IMG/VR virus record: IMGVR_UViG_2645728091_000017
Coordinates: 1 to 23,397 of that record
Direction: 5' to 3' (one strand)
Source: a virus
Taxonomy: Duplodnaviria > Heunggongvirae > Uroviricota > Caudoviricetes
Length of the DNA: 23,397 bases
Shown here: positions 1-23,397 of the stretch, in pieces
Numbering within the stretch: the first letter of the stretch is position 1
Layout: every line of letters starts with the position of its first letter
The notes under the pieces: model-generated
The model's database searches: none
What the model saw: the letters and a program-made list of their open reading frames with translations, nothing else
Told to the model about the DNA's origin: nothing
Translations under genes and position numbers: made by a program

Positions 1-717
1 ATGCTGATTGTATCTGTTCTCAAATGCGGTAAAGAATTTACCCCCAAACACGCACAATGGCTGCATAGCCAATTTAAAGGCATACCTTCAATTTGCTTAA
101 CTGATGCTGGAAGTATCCCTGGTGTTGAAACCGCACCGTTAATGCATAACCTTCCAGGTTGGTGGTCTAAGATTGAGCTTTTTAATCCAAACCATCCGGT
201 AATAGGTGATAAGGATCTGCTTTATTTTGACGTTGATGTTGTCATAACTGGTGATATCAAAATCTTTGATGCGGCGAAAGAGTTCACTATGCTGCGTGAG
301 TTTAACCACCCTTCCAGGGTTAACTCATCCATTATGTTCATTCCTGCGTCTATCAAACAATATGTTTGGGATGCGTTCTGGACTGACCCCGAAAAAAATA
401 TGCATGAATGCCAAACAGAAGATAAATGGGGTGATCAGGGATTTCTGGGCAGCGTCATGAAACCTGTATTGTGGCAAGATATAATTCCCGGCTCTGTTGT
501 TAGTTACAAATGCCATATAGCCACACGCAAAATGATAGGTTACAACCCTGACTTGGCATCAGATTATGCTACTGGCAAAGTTCCTGATGATGTTTCAGTT
601 GTATGTTTTCACGGTAGTCCTCGCCCATGGCGAACAGGGTTCAGTTGGGTTCCTTCCTTTTCTGTACGCGATACCCTGTATGGTAAATTCAAAAATTTTA
701 AACTCAGTTTGAAGTAA
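1..717 (+). CDS. Hypothetical protein, AT-rich moron; possible DxD-motif glycosyltransferase-like enzyme (speculative). May be 5'-truncated by the window edge
   Basis: 238-codon ORF on the strand opposite the late operon, visibly lower GC than the structural genes, followed by a strong intrinsic terminator. Contains LLYFDVDVVITGD (D-x-D-like). No family recognised with confidence. Confidence 0.35.
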   Translation: MLIVSVLKCGKEFTPKHAQWLHSQFKGIPSICLTDAGSIPGVETAPLMHNLPGWWSKIELFNPNHPVIGDKDLLYFDVDVVITGDIKIFDAAKEFTMLREFNHPSRVNSSIMFIPASIKQYVWDAFWTDPEKNMHECQTEDKWGDQGFLGSVMKPVLWQDIIPGSVVSYKCHIATRKMIGYNPDLASDYATGKVPDDVSVVCFHGSPRPWRTGFSWVPSFSVRDTLYGKFKNFKLSLK

Positions 718-758
718 TTTTTTTCAGTTGTTCTATAAGAAAAAATTTCTATCCATCC

Positions 759-789
759 CGCGCCACATCTGATGTCGCGGTTTTTTTTT
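759..789 (+). terminator. Rho-independent terminator downstream of ORF 1..717
   Basis: Imperfect GC-rich hairpin CCGCG(CC)ACATC-T-GATGTCGCGG at 759..780 followed by a T9 run at 781..789. Confidence 0.6.
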
Positions 790-1193
790 ACAGAATACCC
801 CCCTTACTAACGATCCACAAACACCGCCTAAAATTTAATTTTTCTTTTATTTTCTGTGAGTTGTAATTTTACGCCGATCCCTCACAGATCCTTTTTACTG
901 AAAAAAAATGAAATTTCTTTCAATCATTTCAGTTTCTGTTCTCCGCAAAGCCGCCAGTAATGGTGCGGTCTGGCGCTCTGGTTTGTAGAAAAATAAAACT
1001 GAAAAAATTTCCAGATCCAGAAACCGCAGGCGGGTGCGGTGTAGTGCCGTTTTTGTCTGCGAAAGATTTATTTTGTCTGCATGTGGCTACCTCAGAGCGT
1101 CGCTGTGAATTTGATCTTATTGCGGTGTCGCAGTGGTTTCCCTAGTGTTGTCCCGCCTGCTGAGAGCGTTCTGTGCGGTCTGGTGGTGGGTAC

Positions 1194-1215
1194 AAAAAAA
1201 CCCGCACAATGCGGG
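1194..1215 (-). terminator. Rho-independent terminator for the minus-strand operon end
   Basis: On the minus strand, hairpin CCCGC-ATTGT-GCGGG followed by a T7 run (plus strand shows AAAAAAA then CCCGCACAATGCGGG), about 40 nt past the stop at 1258. Confidence 0.55.
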
Positions 1216-1257
1216 TTAAGGTGTGTTCAATTCATATCAACCGATATAAGAACGTAG

Positions 1258-1590
1258 TTACTGACAGGCTTTTTGTCCAATGTAGTATGCAATTGAGCGG
1301 TCAACTATAGGGGCCATATTTGGATCTGGTGCCGAGTTATTCATCTGCTCGATGGTCTCACCGTCTCCAAGATATTTAACTGTCCCGGCAGTACAGTCGT
1401 ACAGCCGCTTTGAATATGATGTTCCAGAAGGCCCCTTTCTTTCGGTTGTTATAGTAGCCATGCTGCCGTCGCGAGTCTTATCTAAAATCGTGTAACTAGC
1501 CTTCGTATCTGTTGGCACATAAACAACCTCAGCCGCAAACACATTGAATGAAACTGCTGCTCCTACAGCTAATATAATGAAATTTTTCAT
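1258..1590 (-). CDS. Small secreted or periplasmic protein of unknown function (moron at the distal end of the tail operon)
   Basis: Internal Met gives MKNFIILAVGAAVSFNVFAA-EVV, a typical Sec signal peptide, preceded by an AGGA/AGGG Shine-Dalgarno-like stretch. Mature part about 90 aa with two Cys. AT-richer than neighbouring genes. The ORF track's longer N-terminus (to 1650) lacks signal-peptide logic. Confidence 0.45.
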   Translation of the reverse strand: MKNFIILAVGAAVSFNVFAAEVVYVPTDTKASYTILDKTRDGSMATITTERKGPSGTSYSKRLYDCTAGTVKYLGDGETIEQMNNSAPDPNMAPIVDRSIAYYIGQKACQ

Positions 1591-1680
1591 ATCCCTATTC
1601 CTATCATTTGAGTATGCAATAATCCTATCAAGGAACTGAGAAAACGACAAACCTCGCGTTTTGTGGGCTGTCTGGAATGG

Positions 1681-3384
1681 TCAGGCAATGATGTTCTGGT
1701 ACTTGCTCCGGGTCTGTCCGGCCTTTGTCGCCGTCTGGGTAAATGCTCCGGCATTGGTTGGCGTACCAACACTGGGGTGCGAATGGCTTGCGCACTGCTG
1801 CGCCAGTTCTGCCAGTAAATCAATGGTGTCCAACATCATGGTCAGCGTGTTTATACTCTCACTGCCGATATGGACGGTTGGCCCCATAATCTGCTGACCG
1901 CCCGATGCCACCGATTTGCGTAATGCAGCAATCTTTTCAGTCAGGGTTCCCCCCACATCAACATCTACGGCTCCCGCCACATTAGTGGACTGTTTCCCGA
2001 TTATCTCAGTTTCATCATTCCCTTCAATACTGGCCAGCCTGTTACCTTTCACCGCCTGGCTATAGTCACCAGCACTTACCTGCTGGATGGCTCCGGCCAG
2101 CAGTGTGGCGGTTCCCAGTACCGTGGTTTTATCCGTGGCTTTCACCGTGGTTTCACGGCTGACCAGTTCGCGCTGTTCCGTATCGGCTTTTACGGTTCGC
2201 GCCATCGATGTTTCACTGATGGTCTGATCGGTCTGCCTTACCCAGTCACCCGCCTGAGTCACCCTCTGAGATACTTCTTCCCGCTGCTGCTGTAATTGCT
2301 CACCGGGTTTAACGTCCGGCAGGCTGGTACCATCCGGCAGCGTCTGCCTGATAAAGGGTTTATCCGGTCTGCCCCCCGTGAATGCAACCTCAACCAGCGT
2401 CCCTTCTGGCGGAAACTGAAACATACCCGAATCATTCCCGGCCATCGGTACCGGCAACGGCACCGCTGAATAAACAGGCGTCTGATTGTCCGGGTTTCCG
2501 TCTGCGTCAAGCAGCTGCACGTCCACGGCGTAACGTGGCCGGAAGGGATCGGCAAAGTTACCGCTTTTTACCGGCTCTGAATGCGCCACGACTCTGGTCA
2601 TCTTTGGCAAATGAAGCCCGGATGCCAGTTCCGGGTAATGGCTTTCAATCTGCCGTTGCGCCGGTGTTTTCTGCAAAGGTTTACCCGTTGCGCGGTTTCT
2701 CGGCGTCCATGTGATCGCCATCGTGTCATTCGTCAGGTGAACTTTAGTCACGCGTTCACCGTTCATCTCCACCCCTGGCCGCATAGTCTGGATCACTGGT
2801 AATGTCACAGAGTTACCGCCAGCAGCCCCCTGGCTGAACTCTGACGGGATTTCTACAGGACGACCGGCAAACAATGACTTTTCTGCGCCGCCGACGTAAA
2901 GCGAACCATCAGGCAACTGGTACCAGATGTAATCCTGGATACTGAACGCCCTGCCCAGATTGTTCAGCAACTGATAACCAGTACCGTTATGGGTAAAATG
3001 TGGGATGGGGGTATCGCTGTACTGTGCATCAGGCACACTGACTGTGATCCCGCTGTTTTCTTCCAGCCAGCCCGCAATTTCACGCAAAGTCGGGTGTTGA
3101 AACGAACATGGCCACATCCTCTCAAACACACCTGCCAGCTCACGAATGAACAGACGCTGAAAACCGTTTTCAGCGGGCTGCGATCGCTCCACATACCCCG
3201 TAAACCAGCGCAAAAGCAGATCGGTATACCCCACATCCAGCCGCACCAGTTTTCCGGTGTAATCGGTTGTTGTCTCTGCGGTGATGAAGCCCCGGCCGCA
3301 GCTGTTCAGCTCCAGTACCAGGCTGGCATCCACCAGGTGAACTTCATCCGTTGAAAGATAAAGGCGTTTTACTGGTTTCATCAT
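1681..3384 (-). CDS. Late-operon protein, 567 aa, function unassigned (position suggests a tail or baseplate component, possibly gpD-like hub)
   Basis: Long ORF with high GC; its start overlaps the stop of the upstream gene at 3384. No diagnostic motif recognised; assignment is positional only. Confidence 0.5.
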   Translation of the reverse strand: MMKPVKRLYLSTDEVHLVDASLVLELNSCGRGFITAETTTDYTGKLVRLDVGYTDLLLRWFTGYVERSQPAENGFQRLFIRELAGVFERMWPCSFQHPTLREIAGWLEENSGITVSVPDAQYSDTPIPHFTHNGTGYQLLNNLGRAFSIQDYIWYQLPDGSLYVGGAEKSLFAGRPVEIPSEFSQGAAGGNSVTLPVIQTMRPGVEMNGERVTKVHLTNDTMAITWTPRNRATGKPLQKTPAQRQIESHYPELASGLHLPKMTRVVAHSEPVKSGNFADPFRPRYAVDVQLLDADGNPDNQTPVYSAVPLPVPMAGNDSGMFQFPPEGTLVEVAFTGGRPDKPFIRQTLPDGTSLPDVKPGEQLQQQREEVSQRVTQAGDWVRQTDQTISETSMARTVKADTEQRELVSRETTVKATDKTTVLGTATLLAGAIQQVSAGDYSQAVKGNRLASIEGNDETEIIGKQSTNVAGAVDVDVGGTLTEKIAALRKSVASGGQQIMGPTVHIGSESINTLTMMLDTIDLLAELAQQCASHSHPSVGTPTNAGAFTQTATKAGQTRSKYQNIIA

Positions 3385-3929
3385 TAACCCAAAGCATCAT
3401 TGACGGGCTTCAGCACTTTGCGTTCAAACCACGTCAGTTTTTCTTCATCTTCTCCGGCAGACTGGCCACCGTTCTGTCCCGCACTACCGGCAGTCTGTTT
3501 TTTTGCGGTCGTCTTACCTGTTGCCCTGGCCTCTCGCTTTTCCTGCACGCTGATATGTTCCGCCAGTGTGAATGTCACCAGCCAGGACATTTTCCCGTCC
3601 TGCTGGGGTGCATCCAGCATTCCGCTGAACGTTGCTTCACGAAAGTTAACAGCACGGGCAACTTCATGCGCCACACGGTACTTCTGACGATTACCACTGG
3701 CATCGGTCGCACTGGCCAGCTCAAAAATACGCTTCAGAATTTCAGGCTGTTTAAAAGGTATTTCACCGCTGATCCGCAGTTCCTTTCCCTTTGCTCCCTG
3801 CTCTGATTTTGTTGTGGCGCTGGTCTGGCCGGACTGATCTTTATCCTGAAATTGCTGTGAAACAGTCACCCGCATGTTTTTCAGCTGGATGGCCTCGCCA
3901 TTAAGCGCCAGTGTCGGGATCGAAGTCAT
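3384..3929 (-). CDS. Late-operon protein, 181 aa, function unassigned (possible tail protein)
   Basis: ORF translationally coupled to both neighbours; charged and Gln/Ala-rich C-terminus. Family not recognised. Confidence 0.45.
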   Translation of the reverse strand: MTSIPTLALNGEAIQLKNMRVTVSQQFQDKDQSGQTSATTKSEQGAKGKELRISGEIPFKQPEILKRIFELASATDASGNRQKYRVAHEVARAVNFREATFSGMLDAPQQDGKMSWLVTFTLAEHISVQEKREARATGKTTAKKQTAGSAGQNGGQSAGEDEEKLTWFERKVLKPVNDALG

Positions 3930-4662
3930 GAATCATTCCCTTTATTCCATCAAGATTATCGCCAACCAGCATCATGGCAGCGGTGTAAACGGCAGACTGC
4001 TGCGGAATGTCCTTCATCAGTTCCAGTAACGTGGTGCCGGTATCTCCGCTGGCAGTAAAAACCCACGCTCTGGCACTCTTTCCCTGTAAATCATTCAGGC
4101 CGCTGGCCACATCTCTGATAAGCTGGTCACGCAGCTGCGTGAACTCGCCCAGCTGTTTTTTCAGCCCTTCGATATCAAACCCGGCACACGCCGCCTTTTG
4201 TGCCTGGCTGATTGCCATAGCAGATAAAGCTGCCCTGCTGGTTGGTACAGACAGTGGAATGGACGCAGGTAACGCTGCGGCGGCTTTCGCCGGGATCTGC
4301 ATCTTTTCAATAGCCAGCGCTGCGAAGGATTGCGCCAGCCGTTTTACCTGCGTGAATGCCGGGGCGGGGAAAATCCCGACCAGGTTATTCAAGCTGGCCA
4401 TAAAGTTTTCCTGCGTCTGTCCGGTGACCATCATAATCACCACGTCCGCATTCCCCCCCGTTCCGGCCAAGCGTTCAGCAAGATAGCGAACGGCATTAAC
4501 CGGGCTGAGATATGCCCCGTTCGCAGTCTGCTGTCCCAGCCCATAAATCCACGGATGCGCAGGGACGATCGAACAGTTCAGCGCAGCAACAGAATCCGTG
4601 AAGGCCAGACGTGCTTCACGCCACATTTCCAGGCACCTCCGGCCACACAATTTCCGGTGCAT
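3901..4662 (-). CDS. Late-operon protein, about 240-253 aa, function unassigned
   Basis: ORF immediately downstream of the tail fiber assembly gene in the same operon. True start may be the internal Met of MWREARLAF. Family not recognised. Confidence 0.45.
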   Translation of the reverse strand: MHRKLCGRRCLEMWREARLAFTDSVAALNCSIVPAHPWIYGLGQQTANGAYLSPVNAVRYLAERLAGTGGNADVVIMMVTGQTQENFMASLNNLVGIFPAPAFTQVKRLAQSFAALAIEKMQIPAKAAAALPASIPLSVPTSRAALSAMAISQAQKAACAGFDIEGLKKQLGEFTQLRDQLIRDVASGLNDLQGKSARAWVFTASGDTGTTLLELMKDIPQQSAVYTAAMMLVGDNLDGIKGMIHDFDPDTGA

Positions 4663-5207
4663 CTTCCGGTTGAATACGGTTCAGTAAAACGCGGTATTTT
4701 TTCCATGCGGTAAGCAGCAGTGCTTCTTCTTCGGTCGCCATGTCTAAATCAACGGCATCCTGCAATGTGGCAATGGCGTCACTGGCCTGTTTAAGCAGTC
4801 TTTTCTTTTCGGCATCTGCCTCGCTGACTAATGCAATTCGCATGGCCTCCGCATCATCCACCCACCCACGCCTTACCATTCCATTTTTGCCAGGCATTAG
4901 CCGGTGCTAACGTGGTTGTCCCTTCCGGGTACCCCCCTGGCTCGATGATCACCACTTCATTACCGTTTTCTGTATCAAACACCACCTCACCACGATGATC
5001 CTCACGGGAAATCCATCTTTGCTTCTCTGAATCAAAAATTGCCACAAACCCCGCTTTGATTACCGGTGGTTTTATTGTGGTGCAGTTGACTGGCAGTCCG
5101 GTATGCGCAGGTATAAAAGCATCACCCGAACCAATAAATTCATTCGTGTCTGAACGCAGGTTATAAACAGTAACTGTTTGATCGGTTTCACTCATTTTAA
5201 AAGTCAT
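4616..5207 (-). pseudogene. Tail fiber assembly protein (Tfa/gpG-like) split by a frameshift
   Basis: N-terminal part (4854..5207, MTFKMSETD...QKWNGKAWV) and C-terminal part (4616..4897, ...DDAEAMRIALVSEADAEKKRLL...) lie in different frames and together resemble one Tfa. The junction is in the repeat TGGGTGGGTGG (minus strand, about 4857..4868). Confidence 0.6.
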
Positions 5208-6781
5208 TATGCGAGTCTCACTATGTAGTTAAATGCAATATTCTTAACTGTCGTTTCTGTGTTACCCGACGCGGCGACGCTAATCGTGTGACTATGTGCG
5301 CCAATTGCTACGGTATGAGAGTGAGCGCCAATACCTACGGTGTGATTGTGTGCGCCAATAGCTACGGTGTGCGCATGGTTTCCCGCCGAACTTGTAGTAG
5401 TCGCGCCCTTATCCTGTCTGGGTACACCATAATCCGAACCGCCAGACTGCACACTAACGGCAAACCCGACAGTGTGCGTATGCGCCCCCGTTGTATTTGT
5501 CGTTTTCGTGCCATAGTCAAATGTGCTCGCCGTTTTAGTACCGTAATCAAATGAGGATGTTGATTTCGTCCCCAAATCGGTACTGGATGCACTGGCTGTG
5601 TGTGAGTGGGATTTATTACCATCATCTTCATAGGACAAAACTTCGCGGCCGTCTGGTTTCCCTTTGATTGTCCAGCGGCGCATGTCAGGAATAACACCCG
5701 ACGGATACGCGATGGCCAGTAAAGGATATGCAACCTTATCAAAAGATTGTCCCTGCATAATTGCCCACCCTACAGGCGGGATATTCGTTGGCCACGGAAG
5801 CGGCACACCAACCGGCAGAACATCACTACGACTTAAAACCGCCAGTTCACCCAGTTCCAGACTTTTTCTGGCTTTCGCTTTGTCGTTAACATCAGCAAGG
5901 TTTGCATCCTTACGCAAAAAATCGCTGCTGGCCTGCTGTTCTCCCAGGCTACCTTTTGGCCGTAGATCCGTGATGTTGCCATCCACATCAATGCTGGCCA
6001 CCGCAAACACATAATGCTGAACCCCGTTCTGAACGTAATCAGCAAGATTTGCAGCCACCGTGATTTTGCTCTGCACATTCCAGACACTGGTCAGCGTCCC
6101 TGTCCAGCACACATCCAGCCAGACTTTTACCGGCTTTGTCGTCACCGTAATATTCTGATTCGCAGCCAGTGACGCACGAAGTCCAGCCACATAACCCGTG
6201 CCTTTCGTGACAAAAAACTGATTGCCGGTTTTGGCTACCAGATACCCGTTACCAAAAAACGCAGCCGCACCATAGATATCCATATTTTCAAGGCGCTGGC
6301 GCTCATCCATTCCGGCCATACGCGCGGTGAAATCAATCTGCCAGGTCTCAGCGGGCGTATTAATCCCGGTTTCCGTTTGTGCGCCGTTGTACTCCATCAG
6401 AAACGAGCGGGTCAGCACGTTCCCCTGTTGCCCTTCTTTTGTTTTCAGTTTCTGCTGTGATGGTGCATGGACAATCATTGCCAGCGTACCGCTGGCCTTA
6501 TTGAGCAGACCGATCCAGTTAAAACTGAAATCACCCACATCTGCGCCCAGCACTACGGAATAAACCACCCCGTTTTCATTCACCACACCTGTGCGGGTAA
6601 CAGACTGCCGGTGAACAATCTGTGCTGTCGGGGGCAACGCTTCATTGCGATCAACAGGTGTATCCGGGTTTAAATCCGGCACACTGGCAAAAACAAATTC
6701 GTCCAGTAGTACCGGTTCACCCGTTGCGCCCTGCTGTGCTTTCCAGTTTTCAAACGCCAGTGTGATGGCTGTCTGTGACAT
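5207..6781 (-). CDS. Tail fiber protein (P2 gpH-like N-terminus; C-terminal tip with His-x-His repeats)
   Basis: 524 aa. Position between the baseplate genes and Tfa, with a 1-nt stop/start overlap (TAATG) with Tfa. C-terminus carries DYGTKT(A/T)S(T/S)F repeats and GAHxHTV(A/G)I repeats. Confidence 0.8.
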
Positions 6782-6791
6782 AAAAACCTCC

Positions 6792-7385
6792 TTACAAACT
6801 CGCGCTGAATATTGCGCTGCGGGCTTCCGTCCCTGCTAACGTCGCCGGGTAAACCATATATTCCCCCTGATCCCATCCAGCCCTGATAACCAGGCTTTCA
6901 GACGTGATCACCTCAAACTGATAACGGCGGCATGTTCGCCCGTACTGGCGGATTATCTGGATCAGCAGCTGCGTGTTGTCTGCAATCTGGCTGTCTGTAA
7001 CCCGAACAAGAATTACATCCCAGTCGATATCCGGTTGCCGTTCTAACAGCTCCACATAACCAATCCCCAGCCGTTCAAAGATATTGATAAACCCCTCTAC
7101 TGAACCGGCATCCCGCGCATTCACAAAGGCAAAAGCCACGCGTTTGCGGAACAGAGGCAACGGTTCACCATCAAAACGGGTTATATCCCGGTCATAAGCC
7201 AGCAGGTTCAGTAATGCCGGTGTACACGTCAGCGGATCAAACTGATTCGTTGGCCAGGTAACCCAGCCGTAAACCTCAGCCCAGAACCGCCGCGCCGTTT
7301 TCAGCAATTTCCCCGGTTCGCCTTTATTCATCCAGGAAGGCAAGACCATCCCGGCCAGCTTTTTCATGAACTCATTCATTCTCAA
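6792..7385 (-). CDS. Baseplate protein, P2 gpI-like tail protein I
   Basis: About 195 aa, located between the baseplate J-like gene and the tail fiber gene as in P2 (J-I-H order). Confidence 0.55.
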
Positions 7386-8558
7386 TATTCACCGTCAGTG
7401 ATTTCAGACGCGGCACGCTAAGTTCACTGGTAATGTCTCCCAGCGAAAATGTCAGTGATTCTGTCTGCGCAAAGGTTTTATGAATTTCCCGCCCCAGTTG
7501 CGAAAAGGAAAACCGTGAATATGGCCACGTCTTTCTGACGTCATAATCAGCATTTTCACGAAAGGCACAGCGGATCATGTTCTCAATGCCGCCCTTCAGC
7601 GTTTTCACCTCTTCGTCACTGAAGTTGTTTAGATTTTTGACATAAACAGTGACGGCCAGATCGTGAAGCGTTTCCGGCATGGGATAACACTGCATATCAT
7701 CACCGTGCCCGTGATGTCCCAGCGTGTTGATATAGTCATTCACCGCATCCACGAACGGCGCTGATGCCACCCCACTGTCCAGTAATAAAAAGGCGTTGGC
7801 TGTTCCTGGCCCCCTCGGTGCTTCATGCTCAAAGAAAATCCGATCTATACTCAGCCCGGCAACACTGGCGATCATTGAGCGATAGACCGCATCAGTGTGG
7901 TAATTCCCCACAAGATTAAACTGATTGCGGCAACGCTCGCGCAGTTCATCATCACTTTCCTCGTCAGCCCCCGGTACGGTCAGCCAGTTTTCCTCACTGA
8001 CCACATGGCTGATACCACTGACCGCCACCGGCAGAATGCGGTAATATCCAGGCGCAAGGTTATACGCGCCCCCGGTGCCGGTGGCTTTCACCGGCAGTAA
8101 TGCGCTGGCCGCACCGGAAGCGATCACCACATCCTCAGTGGTGGCCACCTCATAAACTCGCCCGTTAATGCGTTCTGTCTGGATAACCGTCCCGGCTTTC
8201 ACCGTCACCACAGCTTTTGCATCTTCTTTGAAGAAGCGGATCACCCCATGTGCAGCGCTCGCCGGTTTTGCCGTGACGTTCACCGCCCAGGCCAGCAGAC
8301 GCAACATGCTCCCGCTGGCTGTGGCCACAAACATATTGGCCAGCACGGTTAACACCAGAACGTCTTTAAGCCACATCACCGGGGCAGTCACAATGGCGGT
8401 GATTAATCGCCAGAACGGTGACATTCGGGATGTATTGGTGATAATTCCCTCATCTGCTGCAATTGCATTGAAGCGTTCCCGCACTTCGGCTTCCGTTACC
8501 GGCATACCGCTGTCTTTCACCACTTCTTCAAAATCAACCTGCGGTTTTTCCGTCATAA
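7372..8558 (-). CDS. Baseplate J-like protein (P2 gpJ / Mu gp47 family)
   Basis: About 395 aa with family-like composition, upstream of the gpI-like gene. Start is probably MTEKPQVDFEE, directly abutting the upstream stop; the ORF track extends it to 8610. Confidence 0.7.
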
Positions 8559-8882
8559 ATCCACCTGCGCAGAGATCCCGCCAAAATCGTATGTACTCGC
8601 GGTTACCCACAGCCGCTTCTGACTTTCTTCACTGATTTCCACCGTACCCGGCACAATGCGTTCATCATCTTCAATCAGTAATTCCATGCGGGTAAAAATA
8701 TCCGCTCTCATTGTCGGGCTACGTTCGGCGATTAATTCCGTCGCTAACCCGCTTTCAATAATGGAATGAATAATGTCCTGCCCGATACTTTTTCGGTTAT
8801 TACATAATTCAGGTTCATTACCGGTATTCAGAACAAAGTCACCGCCCTGAATCAGCAAGTCGATATAGAGAACATTACTCAT
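8553..8882 (-). CDS. Small baseplate protein (gpW/gp25-like or DUF2590-like)
   Basis: About 110 aa between the tape measure and baseplate J genes. Start MSNVLY overlaps the tape measure stop (ATGA) with GGAG 9 nt upstream. Confidence 0.5.
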   Translation of the reverse strand: MSNVLYIDLLIQGGDFVLNTGNEPELCNNRKSIGQDIIHSIIESGLATELIAERSPTMRADIFTRMELLIEDDERIVPGTVEISEESQKRLWVTASTYDFGGISAQVDL

Positions 8883-17796: not shown

Positions 17797-18600
17797 TTAC
17801 AGGAAATTAAATTTACCCGCTTTTTCTGAAATCTTACGCCCCGGTGTACGGGTGGATTTATTACCCAGATCGTTAAAACGTTTAACGATATCTTTTGCAT
17901 TATCACGAATAGCCGCAAATTCTTCGGTATCGACCACTTCCGCAATGGTATCCACATCACCCTGAACATCATTCAGCTGATTTTCAATTTTGGCCACACG
18001 GCCTTCCAGTTCGTTTACCGCGTTGGCCAGCGCCTGTAACTTATCATCACCCTGCGCGGCATCATCAGGCGGCGTTTCATCTTCAAACTTTGGCTTAATA
18101 CCAAACAGTTTCTGCCAGTTCTTCATTCTTGCTTCCTGTTTAATTTTTCCATCACGGGAAATTACACAGCTGTAATATCCCTGCTTTGTTAATTTATTGC
18201 GCCGACTACTAAAGCGCAGCCGTGTGGTGCCAACGCTAGCAGGTGTATCTGCTACCGCCAGCCCTTTCAGGTAAGTACGTCCGCTACCACGCCAGTTCTC
18301 ATCCGGTTCAATCGAGAAGAACAGGAGCTGATCTTCATGGTTGGCGAAAATTAAACGCATATTCGGGCAAAGGCTGACATAAAGCCGCGCCAGTCCGTCA
18401 TCGCCATCATGCCAGGTGGCCTCCAGCACCTCCCCAAAATTACCGCAATCATCCTCGTGTTCTGGCCAGATCAAAGCGACATAGTGGTTATAGTCATAGG
18501 TTTCCCCCATATCGATAATCCACTGGCGTTTAATTTCTCTGCCGTCAACGGTATCCCCTTCGGTAGCAACACACAGCCAGTCAGTTTTTAAATGCGACAT
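17797..18600 (-). CDS. O: Capsid scaffolding protein, P2 gpO-like
   Basis: 267 aa; N-terminal VATEGDTVDGREI motif resembles the P2 O N-terminus; coiled-coil acidic C-terminal half. Confidence 0.85.
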   Translation of the reverse strand: MSHLKTDWLCVATEGDTVDGREIKRQWIIDMGETYDYNHYVALIWPEHEDDCGNFGEVLEATWHDGDDGLARLYVSLCPNMRLIFANHEDQLLFFSIEPDENWRGSGRTYLKGLAVADTPASVGTTRLRFSSRRNKLTKQGYYSCVISRDGKIKQEARMKNWQKLFGIKPKFEDETPPDDAAQGDDKLQALANAVNELEGRVAKIENQLNDVQGDVDTIAEVVDTEEFAAIRDNAKDIVKRFNDLGNKSTRTPGRKISEKAGKFNFL

Positions 18601-18761
18601 ATCCCCCCTGATTTATTCACCGACGCTGCAAATCAATTATTGCCAAATAAAACCACCACCGCATCACGCTTTATTCTGAACAGTTCGGTTATCACGTATT
18701 ACCGAACAGACGCGAATTAACACCACCGTTTTTTCATAACAGCCACGGCATAATTATCCGC
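18601..18761. promoter_or_regulatory. Divergent late promoter region between O and P, with a 7-bp perfect dyad GTTCGGT-N11-ACCGAAC at 18683..18707
   Basis: 161-bp intergenic region between divergently transcribed O and P, as in P2 where divergent late promoters sit. The dyad is read directly from the sequence; its function as an activator site is inferred. Confidence 0.4.
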
Positions 18762-20478
18762 ATGGCTAAATACTCAGAAGAACTAAAAGGCGTTGTCCGC
18801 GCACTTTATTTGCGCCGCTATACGCCAAAAGAAATTGCATCAGAACTAAATCTGCCGAATGCGCGGATCGTTTACTACTGGGCTGAGAAATACAGCTGGG
18901 CTGATTTACTCAGTTTTGAAAGCACAGAGGAGGCAATTGAACGTCGCTACCAGCTGCTGGCCAGCCGCGATAATAAAACCGATCTAGACCTCAAAGAAAT
19001 GGACATGCTGATTGCCCACGCCACAAAGCTACGTGCTCAAAGCAATAAGCATAAAGAAAAGATGGCCAGCGGCCAGAGTAACGGGCAGGCAGCTGCGCGC
19101 GACAGCAACAGCGATGAACCGCGCCCCAAACGCAAAAACAGGAAAAACGATATTTCTTCTCTGACTCAGGCGGATTTTGACACCTGGGCGGAAGAACATC
19201 TTTTTGAATACCAGAAACACCTGCGCAGGAACATCGGCCAGCAGGTCAGGAACATCCTTAAAAGCCGCCAGATCGGTGCCACCTGGTACTTTGCATTTGA
19301 AGCCTTTGAAAACGCGGTCATGACAGGCGATCCGCAAATCTTCCTGTCTGCCTCCAAAGTCCAGGCGGAATACTTCCGGTCTTACATCGTCAACATTGCA
19401 GAACAGTATTTTGGCATCACGCTGACCGGCAACCCGATCCGCCTCAGCAACGGCGCTGAACTGCGTTTTCTCTCAACCAACAAAAACACGGCACAGTCCT
19501 ACAGTGGCCACCTGTACTGTGACGAATATTTCTGGGTGCCTAACTTCGCCAGGCTTAACGAAGTGGCCAGCGCAATGGCCACCCATGACAAATGGCGTAC
19601 CACCTACTTTTCAACGCCCTCAGCCAAAACGCACCAGGCTTACCCGTTCTGGACGGGTGAAGAATGGAAACAGGGCAGCAAAAAACGCGCGGCCGCCCAG
19701 TTCCCGTCCTTTGATGAAATGCGTAACGGCGGGCGGCTTCAACCTGGCCAACATCGAGAAGCTGCGCAACCGCTACAACACCGCCACCTTCAACATGCTC
19801 TATATGTGCGTGTTCGTAGACAGCAAGGATTCCGTATTCAGCTTTTCAGACCTGGAAGCCTGCGGCGTGGAGGTGGATACCTGGCAGGATCACAATCCGG
19901 ACGCTGCGCGGCCATTTGGTGACAGGCCAGTATGGGGAGGATTTGACCCGGCACGCAGCGGCGATTTGTCGTGTTTTGTGATTATTGCCCCGCCGATGTA
20001 CGCCGCAGAGAAATTCCGCGTTCTGAAGGTCATTAACTGGAAGGGCATGAACTTCCGCTATCAGGCCAGGCAGATCGAACTCCTGTTTAAAAAATACAAC
20101 TTCACCTATCTGGGAGTGGACGTTACCGGTATTGGCCAGGGTGTTTTTGACAACATCCAGCATTTTGCCATGCGCGTGGCCGTCGCCATTCGTTACGACA
20201 TGAACACAAAAAATCAGCTGGTACTGAAAGCGGCGGACGTGGTGGAAAGTCAGCGTATTGAATGGGACAAGAACCTGAAAGAGATCCCGGCCAGCTTTAT
20301 GGCTGTACGCCGCACCACCACGCAAAGCGGTAACGCCATGACATTTGTCGCTGACCGCAGCCAGGACACTGGCCACGCGGAGGCGTTCTGGGCAATTACC
20401 CACGCCCTGCATAACGAACCACTCAACTACGAAAACAAACCGAAATCCCGCTGGGGTGTAAGGAAAGAGGCTGCATGA
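18762..20478 (+). pseudogene. P: Terminase large (ATPase) subunit, P2 gpP-like, interrupted by a +1 frameshift
   Basis: N-terminal ORF (18762..19922) is terminase-like up to ...SFDEMRNG, then reads a nonsense tail. The downstream ORF (19504..20478) becomes terminase-like from GFNLANIEKLRNRY. Junction is at GGCGGGCGGC (19728..19737); removing one G restores a single reading frame of about 570 aa. Confidence 0.8.
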
Positions 20479-20530
20479 GTAAAAAAACCGCTTCGTTAAG
20501 CGCAACCCGCGCGGCGATAAGTCCAAAAAA

Positions 20531-21535
20531 ATGAGCATCATCACATTCGGCAAACCGGAACCTGTCCTGACCACCGGCACGGATTACCGCGACATCTGGT
20601 ACGACAATGCCGCAGATCACTTTACCCAGCCGATTGACCGGCTGGCACTGGCACAGCTTATCAATCTGAATGGTCAGCATGGCGGCATCATCCACGCCCG
20701 GAAAAATATGATTGTGTCTGATTATATGGGCGGTGGCCTGACTTACGACCAGCTGGAAGCCGCAGCGTTTGACTATACAACCTTCGGGGATATTGCGATT
20801 GGCAAAATCCGCAACGGCTGGGGGGATGTGATTGCCCTGGAACCTTTACCCGGCCTGTATATTCGCCGCCGTAAAGTCAGGGACAACGCCACAGACCAGC
20901 CCGGCGATTATGTGGTGTTACAGGATGGTGAACCGCAGGTATGGCCGCAGGAAGATATCATTTTTATCAAGATGTACGACCCGCAGCAGCATATCTACGG
21001 GCTGCCAGACTATATCGGTGGCGTACACTCGGCATTGCTTAACAGTGAAGCCGTGATTTTCCGCCGCCGCTACTACCACAACGGCGCTCATACTGGCGGC
21101 ATTCTCTATACACGCGATCCCAGCATGACGGATGAAATGGAAGAAGAAATTGAACAGCAGCTGCGTGACAGCAAAGGTATCGGCAACTTCTCGACCATTC
21201 TGGTGAACATACCTGGCGGGGATGGGGATGCAATCAAGTTCATTGAAATGGGGGATATCTCTGCAAAAGATGAATTTGCCAACATCAAAAACATCAGCGC
21301 ACAGGACATTCTCAACGCACACCGCTTTCCCGCTGGGTTGGCCGGAATTGTCCCGCAGAACACCGCTGGCCTGGGGGATGTTGAAAAGGCGGAAAGGATT
21401 TACAAGAAAAGCGAAATAGCACCTATTCAGCGCCGATTTATGACTGCCGTGAACAACGATCCCGAAATACCGAAACGTCTGCACCTTCACTTTGATTTAA
21501 GTTACACAGAATCAACGGATAAGGATGCGGCATGA
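20531..21535 (+). CDS. Q: Portal protein, P2 gpQ-like
   Basis: 334 aa directly downstream of P on the same strand; size and composition match P2-family portal proteins. Confidence 0.85.
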   Translation: MSIITFGKPEPVLTTGTDYRDIWYDNAADHFTQPIDRLALAQLINLNGQHGGIIHARKNMIVSDYMGGGLTYDQLEAAAFDYTTFGDIAIGKIRNGWGDVIALEPLPGLYIRRRKVRDNATDQPGDYVVLQDGEPQVWPQEDIIFIKMYDPQQHIYGLPDYIGGVHSALLNSEAVIFRRRYYHNGAHTGGILYTRDPSMTDEMEEEIEQQLRDSKGIGNFSTILVNIPGGDGDAIKFIEMGDISAKDEFANIKNISAQDILNAHRFPAGLAGIVPQNTAGLGDVEKAERIYKKSEIAPIQRRFMTAVNNDPEIPKRLHLHFDLSYTESTDKDAA

Positions 21536-21585
21536 GGCGAAAAAGGCTAAAATCCAAGCATCATTTAACAGCTGGAGCATGGAAT

Positions 21586-21855
21586 ATGCGAGTTCTGAAA
21601 ATCGAATGCCCGGAATGCGGCTCAAAGGCTGTTATTCGTAAAACAAACCGGAAGCACCGGCAGATTGCGGATATTTACTGCGCCTGTTCAGATGTGGAGT
21701 GTGGCCATACGTTTGTTATGAATCTGACGTTCTCCCACACTCTCAGCCCCAGCGCGAAAACAGGTGATGCGATGGTTCAAGTCCTACTTAACAACTTATC
21801 ACCGTCTCAAAAACAGATGGCACTGGATTTACTGAAAGCCACACCCGCGGCGTGA
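21586..21855 (+). CDS. ogr: Ogr/Delta-family zinc-finger late-gene transcriptional activator
   Basis: MRVLKIECPECG...YCACSDVECGHTF gives the Cys arrangement typical of P2 Ogr / P4 Delta; GGAG 8 nt upstream. An alternative upstream start at 21532 overlaps the Q stop (ATGA) with AAGGA upstream. Confidence 0.75.
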   Translation: MRVLKIECPECGSKAVIRKTNRKHRQIADIYCACSDVECGHTFVMNLTFSHTLSPSAKTGDAMVQVLLNNLSPSQKQMALDLLKATPAA

Positions 21856-22005
21856 GGATATCTCCTGTTTGAGTCATCACTTATGCACAGAATGCTCTTT
21901 CTAGACCCATGACAGTGATCTCTGATATCTTTTCATTATAAGATCAGTGCGTTAAATTTTTTGCATTATATTATTACCTAAAATTGGTGCAGGAGATCTC
22001 CTAGA
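21856..22005 (+). promoter_or_regulatory. AT-rich intergenic region upstream of the cargo gene, bracketed by GGATATCTCCT (21856..21866) and the palindrome AGGAGATCTCCT (21991..22002)
   Basis: Sharp drop in GC after the ogr stop. Sigma70-like hexamers (TTGCAT at 21961, TAAAAT at 21979) are present but with non-canonical spacing, so the promoter call is tentative. Confidence 0.35.
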
Positions 22006-23043
22006 ATGTTTGGTTCAAAGCTTGTAACTAAACTGTGGGAAACCACAGCAGAAAAAGGTATTGGTGCTTTATGTAAGCCCTGGCAAATGCGTAGAGAGGG
22101 AGTTGCCAGTTTAGAAATGGAAAGAAAAAAAATGTTAGTTCTGGCTCAAACAGAGATGGATGTCGAGAACATAAAAAGCGGAAAAGCCATCGTTTCGTTA
22201 AATGATCTAAACAATCCCAAATTGATTTCATTAGAAAATAAACAAGAGTATGATAATTCAGGTTCAATGGAGCCTTACATAGATTTCGATAACTTAAAAA
22301 ACGCAGTAAGTACTCAACTCATTGCAAATGAAGTTCAAAAAGAAATAAACATTGCCAAGTCATTATTTGTTGCTGAAGAAATACTTTCTGTTGATCAGTC
22401 TGAGCCTACTGCTGAAAATATCGAAAATGATTGGTTGCTAAGGTGGAGAGATAGTGCTGCGACAAGTAGTTCTGAGAAGCTACAGGATTTATGGGGAAGA
22501 ATACTTGCAGGTGAACTAAAAAGCCCGGGGTCGTATTCATTAAGAACTGTTGATTTCATCAAAAACCTGACACAAAAAGAAGCAAATAAAATACAAAAAC
22601 TATTCTCTTTCCTCTTTCTTGATAGAATTATCAAGGGGGAAAAAGGTAGTTCTAAATTCGACAATGAATACTTAGATAATGAACTGAACTATAATTTTTT
22701 ATCTGAGATGCAGTCACTCGGAATCATTGCTGGGGTTGAGTCAATGGGATTAGCCTCAACTTTCAAGTCTCTTAGTGAAGAAACCTTTTTTTATTATCAT
22801 ATGTATAATGATAAAGTAATGCAGATTAAACATGACGATCCAGAGAAAGAACTTAAACTAAGGGTTTTAATTCTAACGCCACTTGGCCATGAGTTAAAAA
22901 GTTTATGCCCTGCTACAATTGATAGCATTTATCTCAATCATGTTATTGATGCGATTAAATCATTAGATTTTAAAGTTATCATTGGTGATTGCATACGTAA
23001 AGAAAATGGGGAAATATACTCTAAAAATGAAGTAGAAGTTTAA
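22006..23043 (+). CDS. AT-rich cargo protein of unknown function, 345 aa; candidate single-gene anti-phage defence or exclusion protein
   Basis: Long ORF in markedly AT-rich DNA between the ogr-like gene and a hairpin terminator. AGGAG 8 nt before the ATG. Contains NDWLLRWRDSAATSSSEKLQDLWGRILAGELKSPGSYSLRTVDFIKNLTQKEANKIQKLF, which I recall as DUF2806-like (unverified). Not a virion, lysis or replication gene. Confidence 0.7.
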   Translation: MFGSKLVTKLWETTAEKGIGALCKPWQMRREGVASLEMERKKMLVLAQTEMDVENIKSGKAIVSLNDLNNPKLISLENKQEYDNSGSMEPYIDFDNLKNAVSTQLIANEVQKEINIAKSLFVAEEILSVDQSEPTAENIENDWLLRWRDSAATSSSEKLQDLWGRILAGELKSPGSYSLRTVDFIKNLTQKEANKIQKLFSFLFLDRIIKGEKGSSKFDNEYLDNELNYNFLSEMQSLGIIAGVESMGLASTFKSLSEETFFYYHMYNDKVMQIKHDDPEKELKLRVLILTPLGHELKSLCPATIDSIYLNHVIDAIKSLDFKVIIGDCIRKENGEIYSKNEVEV

Positions 23044-23063
23044 AAACGTAAAAAATCATATCC

Positions 23064-23095
23064 CCCTCACTTTTATCAAAATAAAGTGAGGGTTT
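23064..23095. terminator. Hairpin terminator between convergent genes (possibly bidirectional)
   Basis: Perfect 10-bp stem CCCTCACTTT / AAAGTGAGGG (23064..23073 and 23083..23092) with a 9-nt loop, followed by TTT on the plus strand. Confidence 0.5.
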
Positions 23096-23193
23096 AAGAG
23101 ATATAGATGAATTTATAGTCAACTTACTATTAATCATCTTAAACACTATAACATTCGGCACCTTACAACTGAGATTATAGTATTGTCAATGAG

Positions 23194-23397
23194 TTAACAT
23201 TCCCCATCAGATACTGGAAAGGCCCCTGACCTTGTTTTTTTTAAATCTTTTCTAAGATCGTGTCGCATTTCTCCTGCAATCTCACCAATCCAGGCCAAAG
23301 CGATTGTTTTCTCGCGCTGGTCACTTTCGTACACATGGGCAATTTTGGCCAATAACTCAATGCGCTCCAGCTGTGCCGACGCTTCCAAAAGATCCAT
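23194..23397 (-). CDS. C-terminal fragment of a minus-strand gene continuing beyond the window (unknown function)
   Basis: ORF open to the window edge, ending ...PVSDGEC at 23194; convergent with the cargo gene. No family recognised. Confidence 0.3.
   Translation of the reverse strand: MDLLEASAQLERIELLAKIAHVYESDQREKTIALAWIGEIAGEMRHDLRKDLKKTRSGAFPVSDGEC

Follow-up and report, generated by a model that had tools for sequence, protein, structure and literature searches.

What kind of element carries head genes that resemble those of phage P2 next to tail genes that do not? This question is posed by the 23,397 nucleotides (nt) of the IMG/VR virus record IMGVR_UViG_2645728091_000017 (Caudoviricetes; positions 1 to 23,397, hereafter the window), for which an initial annotation from the sequence had proposed a mosaic of P2-type head and packaging genes and a different contractile-tail module, possibly domesticated for its cargo. 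We conclude that the window is very probably the late-gene half of an already classified HP1-type prophage of the P2 family, which was disabled recently and is neither a mosaic nor domesticated. The kind of phage is already known (HP1-type Peduoviridae, Quadragintavirus-like); it is met here in a newly inactivated state and with its cargo at known hotspots. The window would represent the attL-proximal 23 kilobases (kb) of a temperate Peduoviridae prophage of ~33 kb that occupies the site between mntR and mntS in an Escherichia chromosome.

Head and tail of HP1 type

The late region of the window follows Haemophilus phage HP1 gene by gene. In the HP1 annotation, the order Q, P / O, N, M, L and then orf21 to orf35 is identical to that of the window; HP1 homologues were found for 20 of the 24 late genes, including an open reading frame (ORF) resembling ogr, unannotated in HP1 and located just downstream of its Q gene, and the tblastn matches are colinear across 15 tail genes. 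Tail proteins share 28–60% amino-acid (aa) identity with HP1 (tblastn), with 50–60% for the gpI-like, gpJ and DUF2590 proteins (orf30, orf29 and orf28), 45% for the N-terminal part of the fibre (orf31) and 30–60% for the block of tube, sheath, neck, terminator and L (orf24, orf23, orf22 and orf20). Pfam families in the tail include two that bear the name of HP1 (HP1_ORF34 and Phage_HP1_Orf24), together with DUF2586, DUF2590 and TAC_10.

On the minus strand, the tail genes are arranged as R, S-like, sheath, tube, holin, M15 endolysin, Rz/Rz1, chaperone, tape measure, DUF2590, J, I-like, fibre, fibre chaperone, orf33-like, HP1_ORF34 and hub-spike. This is the order of HP1-type tails, R-S-sheath(DUF2586)-tube(HP1_Orf24)-lysis-chaperone-tape measure-DUF2590-J-I-fibre-tfa-orf33-orf34-orf35, and the hol-lys-Rz cassette of HP1 occupies the same position between tube and chaperone. 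The window does not follow the order of the genus Peduovirus (P2, 186), X-lysis-R-S / V-W-J-I-H-G / FI-FII-E-T-U-D-ogr. The initial annotation had thus correctly described a tail that is ordered unlike that of P2 and encloses a lysis cassette, and it was also right to call Q, P, O, N, M and L P2-like: all six match Pfam models of the P2 family (Phage_portal, PF04860; Terminase_5/6N/6C, PF06056/PF03237/PF17289; Phage_GPO, PF05929; Phage_cap_P2, PF05125; Phage_term_smal, PF05944; Phage_GPL, PF05926). This head and packaging set with divergent transcription of P and O is the one found in Peduoviridae (Pfam; tblastn to P2 and HP1). Its proteins are 27–46% identical to P2 and 34–52% identical to HP1 (aa, tblastn), and most head proteins are nearer to HP1-type phages than to P2.

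The distribution of individual proteins agrees with the synteny. Sheaths of the DUF2586 type are encoded in 76 phage records, all of them 29–38-kb peduoviruses of HP1, HP2, F108, K139, Kappa, phiO18P, ESSI-2 or SW3 type, as judged by name and genome size, and the nearest relatives of the capsid are drawn from the same group (ESSI-2 81%, Vibrio phage 1.202.O 57%, SW5 54%, K139 48%; P2 26.5%). Since head and tail are both colinear with HP1 and have the same nearest relatives, they appear to have a common history, that of the HP1-type branch within the P2 family.

A true recent mosaic, in which P2-type head and packaging genes were recombined with an unrelated contractile-tail module, for instance a Mu-like one, would account for a gene order unlike P2 and for the tblastn comparison with P2, in which the tail gave matches for two proteins, the holin and, in its C-terminal part, the fibre chaperone. 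We nevertheless regard such a mosaic as highly improbable, because HP1 is colinear with both the head and the tail, every phage record with this type of sheath is HP1-type, and remote Pfam matches to P2 gpR, gpS, gpI, gpJ and gpV mark the tail as a diverged P2-family tail rather than a foreign one. The ranked relatives of capsid and sheath already point to congruent head and tail phylogenies. One further observation in favour of the mosaic, the 54% identity of the holin to P2 gpY compared with 27–46% for most head and packaging proteins, points to a local exchange of the lysis cassette. The locally exchanged pieces that are visible seem to be limited to the holin, the M15 endolysin and the C-terminus of the fibre chaperone, which would be ordinary small-scale phage mosaicism.

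A Mu-like tail was rejected. The match to phage Mu is restricted to a 64-residue C-terminal region of the fibre chaperone (tblastn), and the ORF list and gene table contain no transposase in the window or on the contig. The claim of a mosaic with a different tail module could not be upheld: the whole late region is colinear with HP1, and the same layout exists at ~94% nt identity in plaque-forming Quadragintavirus. The impression of a P2 head with a foreign tail arises when an HP1-type peduovirus is compared with P2 alone. As this layout has been in the databases since the HP1 genome, and now belongs to a named genus with isolated phages, our finding is mainly a correction.

The Escherichia phages ESSI2_ev129, ev015 and ev040 share the gene order of the late region and 93.5–93.9% nt identity over 85–87% of the window (megablast, phage collection). 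They are plaque-forming temperate coliphages isolated from infant faecal viromes (PMC6969025). All three are classified in the Peduoviridae, genus Quadragintavirus. The International Committee on Taxonomy of Viruses delimits genera at 70% or more nt identity over the genome and species at 95% or more over the full length. Within the half of the genome that the window covers, the values above would place it in Quadragintavirus; being below 95%, they put it outside the species of ev129, ev015 and ev040. Prophages located between mntR and mntS of E. coli reach up to 95.4% nt identity to the window, with a coverage across relatives of 85–89%, and are ordered as cargo, tail, head, P-Q-ogr, A and early genes, CI-int. 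The segment from Q to ogr is 86.9% identical to ev129.

The remaining functions of a temperate peduovirus are distributed as follows: Ogr is encoded in the window; gpA, cII, a cox-like gene and CI lie on a contig of the lesion-bearing lineage described below (L008), and an integrase is present in close relatives. To the left of window position 1, mntR follows at ~375 nt. The left host flank of a near-identical contig (L021, 15208–20354; mntR, ybiR, ldtB, ybiT) is 96.6% identical to E. coli XYEH3934; this is low within a species, so that the host is possibly a divergent Escherichia lineage. In XYEH3934, the prophage is bordered on both sides by the AT-rich motif TATA(A/T)TATAGC, a candidate for the att core. 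A tRNA scan found no tRNA genes in the window, which therefore contains no tRNA att site, and Rfam returned zero matches in the window at the gathering threshold.

Three lesions in virion genes

The lesions were defined by comparison with ev129 and the prophage of E. coli XYEH3934 and, in a second step, with public contigs sharing 99.8–99.9% identity with the window. In the large terminase gene P, 59 nt are missing between 19728 and 19729, a segment that in the intact allele stands between imperfect 11-nt direct repeats, GCGG(A/G)CGGCTT. By this deletion, the nuclease domain (Terminase_6C) is no longer in frame with the ATPase domain (Terminase_6N). The intact protein has 591 aa in ev129, in XYEH3934 and in a 99.9%-identical contig (L017), as do most listed members of the 90% cluster of this terminase (1,212 member sequences), and the exact truncated product of 386 aa is found on 18 public contigs. 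The fibre chaperone gene contains CCAC three times instead of twice at 4858–4869 (plus-strand coordinates). This 4-nt tandem duplication leaves fragments of 117 aa and 93 aa of what is a single 195-aa ORF in ev129, XYEH3934 and a further 99.9%-identical contig (L016; GCA_964302375.1), and the exact 117-aa fragment recurs on 21 public contigs.

In the portal gene Q, a run of seven instead of eight adenines at 20481–20487 (codons 4–5) frameshifts the MSKKK start. P2 gpQ begins with MSKKK too, and this conservation identifies it as the genuine start of the portal. The only in-frame start left is an internal ATG at 20531, which has no evident Shine-Dalgarno sequence, and gene callers report a portal of 334 aa in all lesion-bearing contigs that reach the portal start. 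To judge by their sequence context, all three lesions are slippage events, each located at a direct repeat or a homopolymer. Two structural genes had appeared frameshifted in the initial annotation; both, terminase P and the fibre chaperone, were confirmed to be so, and the portal start is added here as a third.

The lesions are carried by GCA_002460965.1 (GenBank), by several assemblies derived independently from the Sequence Read Archive (SRA) and by two metagenomes, in total at least eight independent public samples. One contig of GCA_002460965.1 has both the terminase and the chaperone lesion and differs from the window by a single mismatch in 15,207 nt; lesion-bearing copies in general show 1–2 mismatches over 9–15 kb. 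A fully functional prophage with sequencing or assembly errors, which the initial annotation had considered as the alternative, would fit the portal lesion, since one base is missing there from an A8 homopolymer, where sequencing errors typically occur. A deletion of 59 nt and a duplication of 4 nt are, however, atypical of read errors, the same truncated proteins occur in isolate, SRA-derived and metagenome assemblies from different projects, and the portal is shortened in every lesion contig that reaches its start. Because identical truncated products recur across independent assemblies, we consider the lesions to be real and rejected sequencing error as the cause of the frameshifts, for which there is hardly any probability left. 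As 99.9%-identical intact alleles exist, the lesions are also recent.

We propose that three recent replication-slippage mutations in this clone hit terminase P, portal Q and the fibre chaperone. The prophage would presumably still be inducible, with excision, replication and cell lysis. With a broken terminase, a compromised portal and a missing fibre chaperone, it would neither package DNA nor yield infectious particles.

Outside these three genes, the 27 window genes that could be matched to the XYEH3934 prophage all have their full length, 26 of them at 91–100% aa identity and one, the small hypothetical gene at the right end, at 73%. On the lesion-bearing contig, the early genes equal their intact relatives in length (A 673 aa, Dam 286, Fil 57, cII 167, cox-like 73), and CI runs past the end of the locus. 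Relatives are damaged in other ways. In E. coli Combat13F7 (L006; NZ_CP019245, 73420–86501), the whole late region is gone, and the glycosyltransferase, extra cargo and early genes are kept. In L017 (GCA_040341555.1), the segment from mid-spike to L is deleted, P and Q are intact and the glycosyltransferase is kept. A metagenome contig (L024; ERZ28588494) combines the fibre-chaperone lesion of the window with a split spike gene, its terminase lying beyond the locus examined. The intactness of the 27 other genes and of the early genes, the near-identical intact alleles and the differing deletions in relatives together point to ongoing neutral decay. This indicates a defective prophage at an early stage of decay, not a domesticated one; inactivating mutations in P, Q and tfa that recur in independent assemblies are what its sequence has in common with defective prophages. 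The site between mntR and mntS thus offers a natural decay series, from intact phages to the three-lesion copy and on to the loss of the tail module or of the whole late region, which could show in what order, and how fast, prophages are inactivated.

The suspicion that the element is a domesticated prophage kept for its cargo proved half right, in that the prophage appears to be defective for virion production. Domestication itself, by which a crippled element would be kept for beneficial cargo (glycosyltransferase, DUF2806, 110-aa and HxH genes) and the lesions would have been selected to stop virions, is rather improbable. In its favour, the cargo is intact, and its exact alleles are spread more widely than the lesion lineage (265 index blocks for the glycosyltransferase and 51 contigs for DUF2806, versus 18–21 contigs). 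Moreover, all three independent hits fall within virion genes, and the two large-deletion remnants, L006 and L017, which were degraded independently at the same site, both hold the glycosyltransferase. Selection on cargo is plausible, and this retention in 2 of 2 remnants is compatible with it, although two cases are not proof. Yet the window consists mostly of virion genes, so that three hits there are unsurprising, and the lesions are very young. With lysis, replication and regulatory genes intact, induction should still kill the cell, unlike in domesticated elements. The sub-lineage represented by L024 already has a further break in the spike gene, as neutral decay predicts, and cargo-specific purifying selection is not in evidence. 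It is similarly unlikely that the clone keeps the crippled prophage as a carrier of four accessory functions, including an HxH metal-binding fibre- or needle-like protein uncharacterised in P2-family phages, and that the lesions were selected to stop virions.

There is even less reason to see a tailocin, or co-opted contractile particle, in which tail and lysis genes would be kept as a bacteriocin after the loss of packaging. Such a particle would agree with the hits in terminase and portal and with a tail module whose genes, including the lysis cassette inside it, are intact; however, functional fibres require the fibre chaperone, which is broken as well, and capsid, scaffold, small terminase, head completion, replication and immunity genes are all intact. 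The lesions are, furthermore, no older than one clone (at most 2 mismatches over 9–15 kb). With the head (except for P and Q), the lysis genes and the early genes examined all intact, a tailocin has next to no likelihood, and a recently disabled prophage is the reading that we prefer.

Several points weigh against this reading in part. Portal translation may conceivably begin at the internal ATG, and either a terminase that works in two parts or complementation by another resident phage is formally possible. Neither the window nor the lesion-bearing loci examined reach as far as the integrase and att sites of this exact element, and its exact host lineage is uncertain given the identity of the flank. 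As to the common history of head and tail, the ranks of capsid and sheath relatives are partly incongruent (57% versus 43% for Vibrio phage 1.202.O, 34% versus 53% for HP1), which makes an ancient module exchange within the HP1-type group possible.

Late genes, their control and the accessory genes

Genes of the window were called by a six-frame ORF listing combined with Pfam, PHROG and NCBIfam scans (Table 1).

Table 1. Features of the window, with coordinates on the 23,397-nt stretch.
Feature	Position	Strand	Matches and remarks
Glycosyltransferase (predicted), 238 aa	1–717	+	Outermost prophage gene, next to attL; convergent with late operon
Intrinsic terminator (putative)	1199–1217	-	AACCCGCATTGTGCGGGTT then TTTTTGT; would close the long late operon
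110-aa accessory gene	1261–1590	-	Distal end of late operon; phrog_13843 (uncharacterised), E 3e-47
Baseplate hub-spike, 567 aa	1681–3384	-	HP1 orf35 homologue, 41% full length; PF04717, PF06715; phrog_2258
HP1 orf34 homologue	3384–3929	-	PF25759 (HP1_ORF34), E 5e-54; tblastn to HP1
HP1 orf33 homologue	3901–4626	-	tblastn to HP1 orf33
Tail-fibre assembly chaperone (tfa)	4616–5207	-	Broken by 4-nt duplication
Tail fibre	5207–6781	-	Collar domain, C-terminal HxH repeats; PF12571, PF07484, PF03335
gpI-like baseplate wedge	6792–7379	-	PF09684 (weak); HP1 orf30
gpJ baseplate wedge	7372–8556	-	PF04865; HP1 orf29
DUF2590 baseplate wedge	8553–8882	-	PF10761; HP1 orf28
Tape measure protein	8879–10846	-	PF10145; 31% to HP1 orf27
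DUF6890 ORF	10846–11037	-	PF21830; -1 frame extension of chaperone (putative)
Tail assembly chaperone (TAC_10)	11034–11291	-	PF10963
Rz1 lipoprotein	11278–11466	-	Overlaps Rz
Rz	11438–11776	-	Lysis cassette; PF23793 and phrog_1152 within cassette
M15 endolysin	11776–12117	-	PF13539
Holin	12104–12406	-	PF04550; 54% to P2 gpY
Tail tube	12416–12871	-	PF10772 (HP1_Orf24)
Sheath	12868–13995	-	PF10758 (DUF2586)
gpS-like neck protein	13992–14699	-	PF05069 (weak)
gpR tail terminator	14696–15202	-	PF06891
gpL head completion protein	15199–15651	-	PF05926
HxH minigene, 82 aa	15750–15998	-	Between M and L; PF03335 phage tail fibre repeat, E 1.5e-10
M small terminase	16005–16709	-	PF05944; M, N and O 34–39% to HP1, 27–29% to P2
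N major capsid	16713–17735	-	PF05125
O scaffold/protease	17797–18600	-	PF05929
Large terminase P	18762–20478	+	Broken by 59-nt deletion
Portal Q	20475–21535	+	Start frameshifted
Ogr/Delta-type zinc-finger late activator	21532–21855	+	PF04606, E 9e-20; after Q as in HP1
DUF2806 (Abi-alpha-like), 345 aa	22006–23043	+	After ogr, in gpQ-gpA interval; PF10987, E 1e-25
Small conserved hypothetical gene	23194–23397	-	73% to WP_040080381 of XYEH3934

The small hypothetical gene at the right end of the window precedes the replication gene A in relatives, and the early region begins there. At the centre of the late region, the 160-nt divergent spacer between O and P contains a perfect dyad, GTTCGG-N13-CCGAAC (18683–18707), which occurs once in the window versus 0 times in 100 shuffles and is a candidate binding site of the Ogr-type late activator. 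The late activator site of P2 is TGT-N12-ACA, from which this dyad differs. Scans for sigma-70 promoters gave fewer matches than in shuffled sequence and were uninformative. By analogy to P2 and HP1, the Ogr-type activator would switch on a divergent late promoter in this spacer. One promoter arm would give P-Q-ogr. The other would be transcribed as a single operon of ~17 kb with almost no gaps, O-N-M-(HxH minigene)-L-R-S-sheath-tube-lysis-chaperone-tape measure-baseplate-fibre-spike-110-aa gene, that would end at the strong terminator at 1217–1199. Between the glycosyltransferase and the 110-aa gene, a conserved segment of ~400 nt (809–1215) holds no convincing ORF and corresponds to both ends of the linear ESSI2_ev129 record. 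The cos site of HP1 has an equivalent position beyond the spike gene, and by this analogy the segment may contain cos.

The overlap between the tail assembly chaperone and the DUF6890 ORF was considered as a further mutational frameshift and rejected: the chaperone ORF ends with GTA AAA AAC TGA, so that a canonical slippery heptamer, A_AAA_AAC (11043–11037), stands directly before the stop codon, and the arrangement appears to be a programmed -1 frameshift. From this heptamer, the -1 frame runs on as DUF6890 to the start of the tape measure gene. DUF6890 would accordingly be the extension that frameshifting adds to HP1-type tail chaperones, equivalent to E' or T, in an arrangement analogous to the E/E' frameshift of P2 and the G/GT frameshift of lambda. 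RefSeq carries DUF6890 as a separate gene with a CTG start.

In the VgrG-like hub-spike protein, an OB fold is combined with gp5_C repeats and, at the C-terminus, an HSH apex motif. The protein resembles a fusion of gpD and gpV, and the CASHSHPS motif with which it ends is similar to the iron-binding HxH apex found in P2-type spikes. Within the late region, it is the lysis cassette that was truly exchanged: the holin lacks a match in HP1 and is closer to its P2 counterpart than most of the head and packaging proteins are to theirs, and the endolysin is an M15 peptidase, not a lysozyme.

Accessory genes occupy segments that are absent or replaced in close relatives, at the three positions that the initial annotation had listed as cargo: the glycosyltransferase and 110-aa genes beyond the spike, the HxH minigene, and the DUF2806 gene. 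These are recognised variable hotspots of P2-like phages, namely the att-adjacent site, the end of the late operon, the M-L interval and the interval from portal and ogr to gpA. At the first of them, where relatives have a serine acetyltransferase, the window encodes a protein that matches the phrog_1962 'glycosyltransferase' moron (E 6e-81) and has no sequence match in Pfam or NCBIfam. Its AlphaFold model, based on a 38-sequence alignment, reaches a predicted local distance difference test score of 96.5. A Foldseek search of the Protein Data Bank (PDB) with this model retrieved glycogenin, LgtC and GlyE (GT8) as top matches (E ~1e-7, template modelling scores 0.5–0.59, probability 1.00), and in the alignment the first aspartate of the DxD motif, D77, is invariant and the second, D79, nearly so. 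By its predicted fold and its DxD motif, the protein is a GT8-like glycosyltransferase (GT-A fold), and it probably modifies a surface polysaccharide. The 110-aa protein begins with a signal-like segment, MKNFIILAVGAAVSFNVFA, and is putatively secreted. It is 100% identical to WP_000787654 of E. coli XYEH3934; some relatives have the gene, and ev129 lacks it.

The HxH minigene consists of a 21-nt tandem repeat with a strain-variable copy number and encodes MKESHLQG-(GAH[ST]HSx)n-GAHTHTFNTEH, the repeat unit being G-A-H-[ST]-H-S-x. Its ATG lies 6 nt past the stop codon of M and is preceded by AAGGA. The repeat units vary chiefly at third codon positions, with switching between the serine codons AGT and TCT, and of the frames, this one alone is open and has a start codon; these features imply constraint at the protein level and thus a real protein. 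The product has 82 aa in the window, 78 aa in ev129 and 75 aa in GCA_002460965.1, and the gene is missing from most E. coli relatives and from ev040 and ev015, which form plaques, so that it is dispensable for plaque formation. This distribution was taken from a DNA search, as a protein search of a large database gave a single fragment, probably owing to composition filtering. The only annotation of the product is 'tail fiber protein' in ev129. HxH iron-binding motifs occur in phage fibres and spikes, and by this analogy the protein may, speculatively, form a metal-binding trimeric fibre. We flag the minigene as uncharacterised and conserved at the protein level.

The DUF2806 gene has a GC content of ~35%, an AGGAG ribosome-binding site of its own and a hairpin after its stop codon. 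It is absent from most relatives and found at the same place in E. coli mip270. Besides its Pfam match, the protein shows a weak precomputed match to Abi_alpha and a sub-threshold match to TIGR03899, the only NCBIfam match among the cargo. The DUF2806 protein 'Belisama' has been described as an anti-phage system (bioRxiv 10.1101/2024.07.02.601686), and the gene is a candidate abortive-infection or defence gene. PADLOC gave zero matches for five cargo and flanking proteins, and PDB sequence searches with the glycosyltransferase, the DUF2806 protein and the 110-aa protein returned nothing significant. The interval between gpA and gpQ has been described as a variable hotspot of P2-like prophages (Rousset et al. 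2022; PMC9122126). Our data show that this hotspot operates in the HP1-type lineage too, here with a DUF2806/Abi-alpha-like gene as its occupant.

Comparison with known phages

Gene-for-gene synteny, the ogr-like gene after Q and the level of protein identity connect the window with HP1 (Hpunavirus), K139, phiO18P, F108 and Cronobacter phage ESSI-2. It differs from HP1 in the host clade, in the C-terminus of the fibre and its chaperone, in the HxH minigene between M and L, which HP1 lacks, and in the replaced lysis genes: neither the gpY-like holin nor the M15 endolysin has a BLAST match to HP1 hol or lys. With P2, it shares the head set of Q, P, O, N, M and L, the divergent promoters of P and O, an Ogr-type activator, a -1 frameshift chaperone, the gpA-gpQ hotspot and remotely homologous R, S, I, J and V tail proteins (Pfam). 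P2 differs in having its late genes in four operons: lysis is encoded between X and R, the genes for baseplate and fibre precede those for sheath and tube, and ogr follows D.

The closest correspondence is with the Quadragintavirus isolates ev129, ev015 and ev040 and the prophages between mntR and mntS, in which the late order is identical and the variable positions are likewise the att-proximal, M-L and Q-A sites. The glycosyltransferase of the window stands where these relatives have their serine acetyltransferase, the 110-aa gene, lacking in ev129, is shared by the window and the mntR–mntS prophages, and the DUF2806 gene is an addition relative to the isolates. The three inactivating lesions are found in the window copy, whereas ev129, ev015 and ev040 are free of them. 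Finally, the defence and moron hotspots of P2-like phages (PMC9122126; bioRxiv 10.64898/2026.02.27.708500) resemble the window in having a low-GC variable gene between portal and gene A and variable sites near gpL and att. In the window, however, the portal and the hotspot are separated by ogr, the DUF2806 gene is not recognised by PADLOC, and the occupant of the M-L site is a repeat minigene instead of a known defence system.

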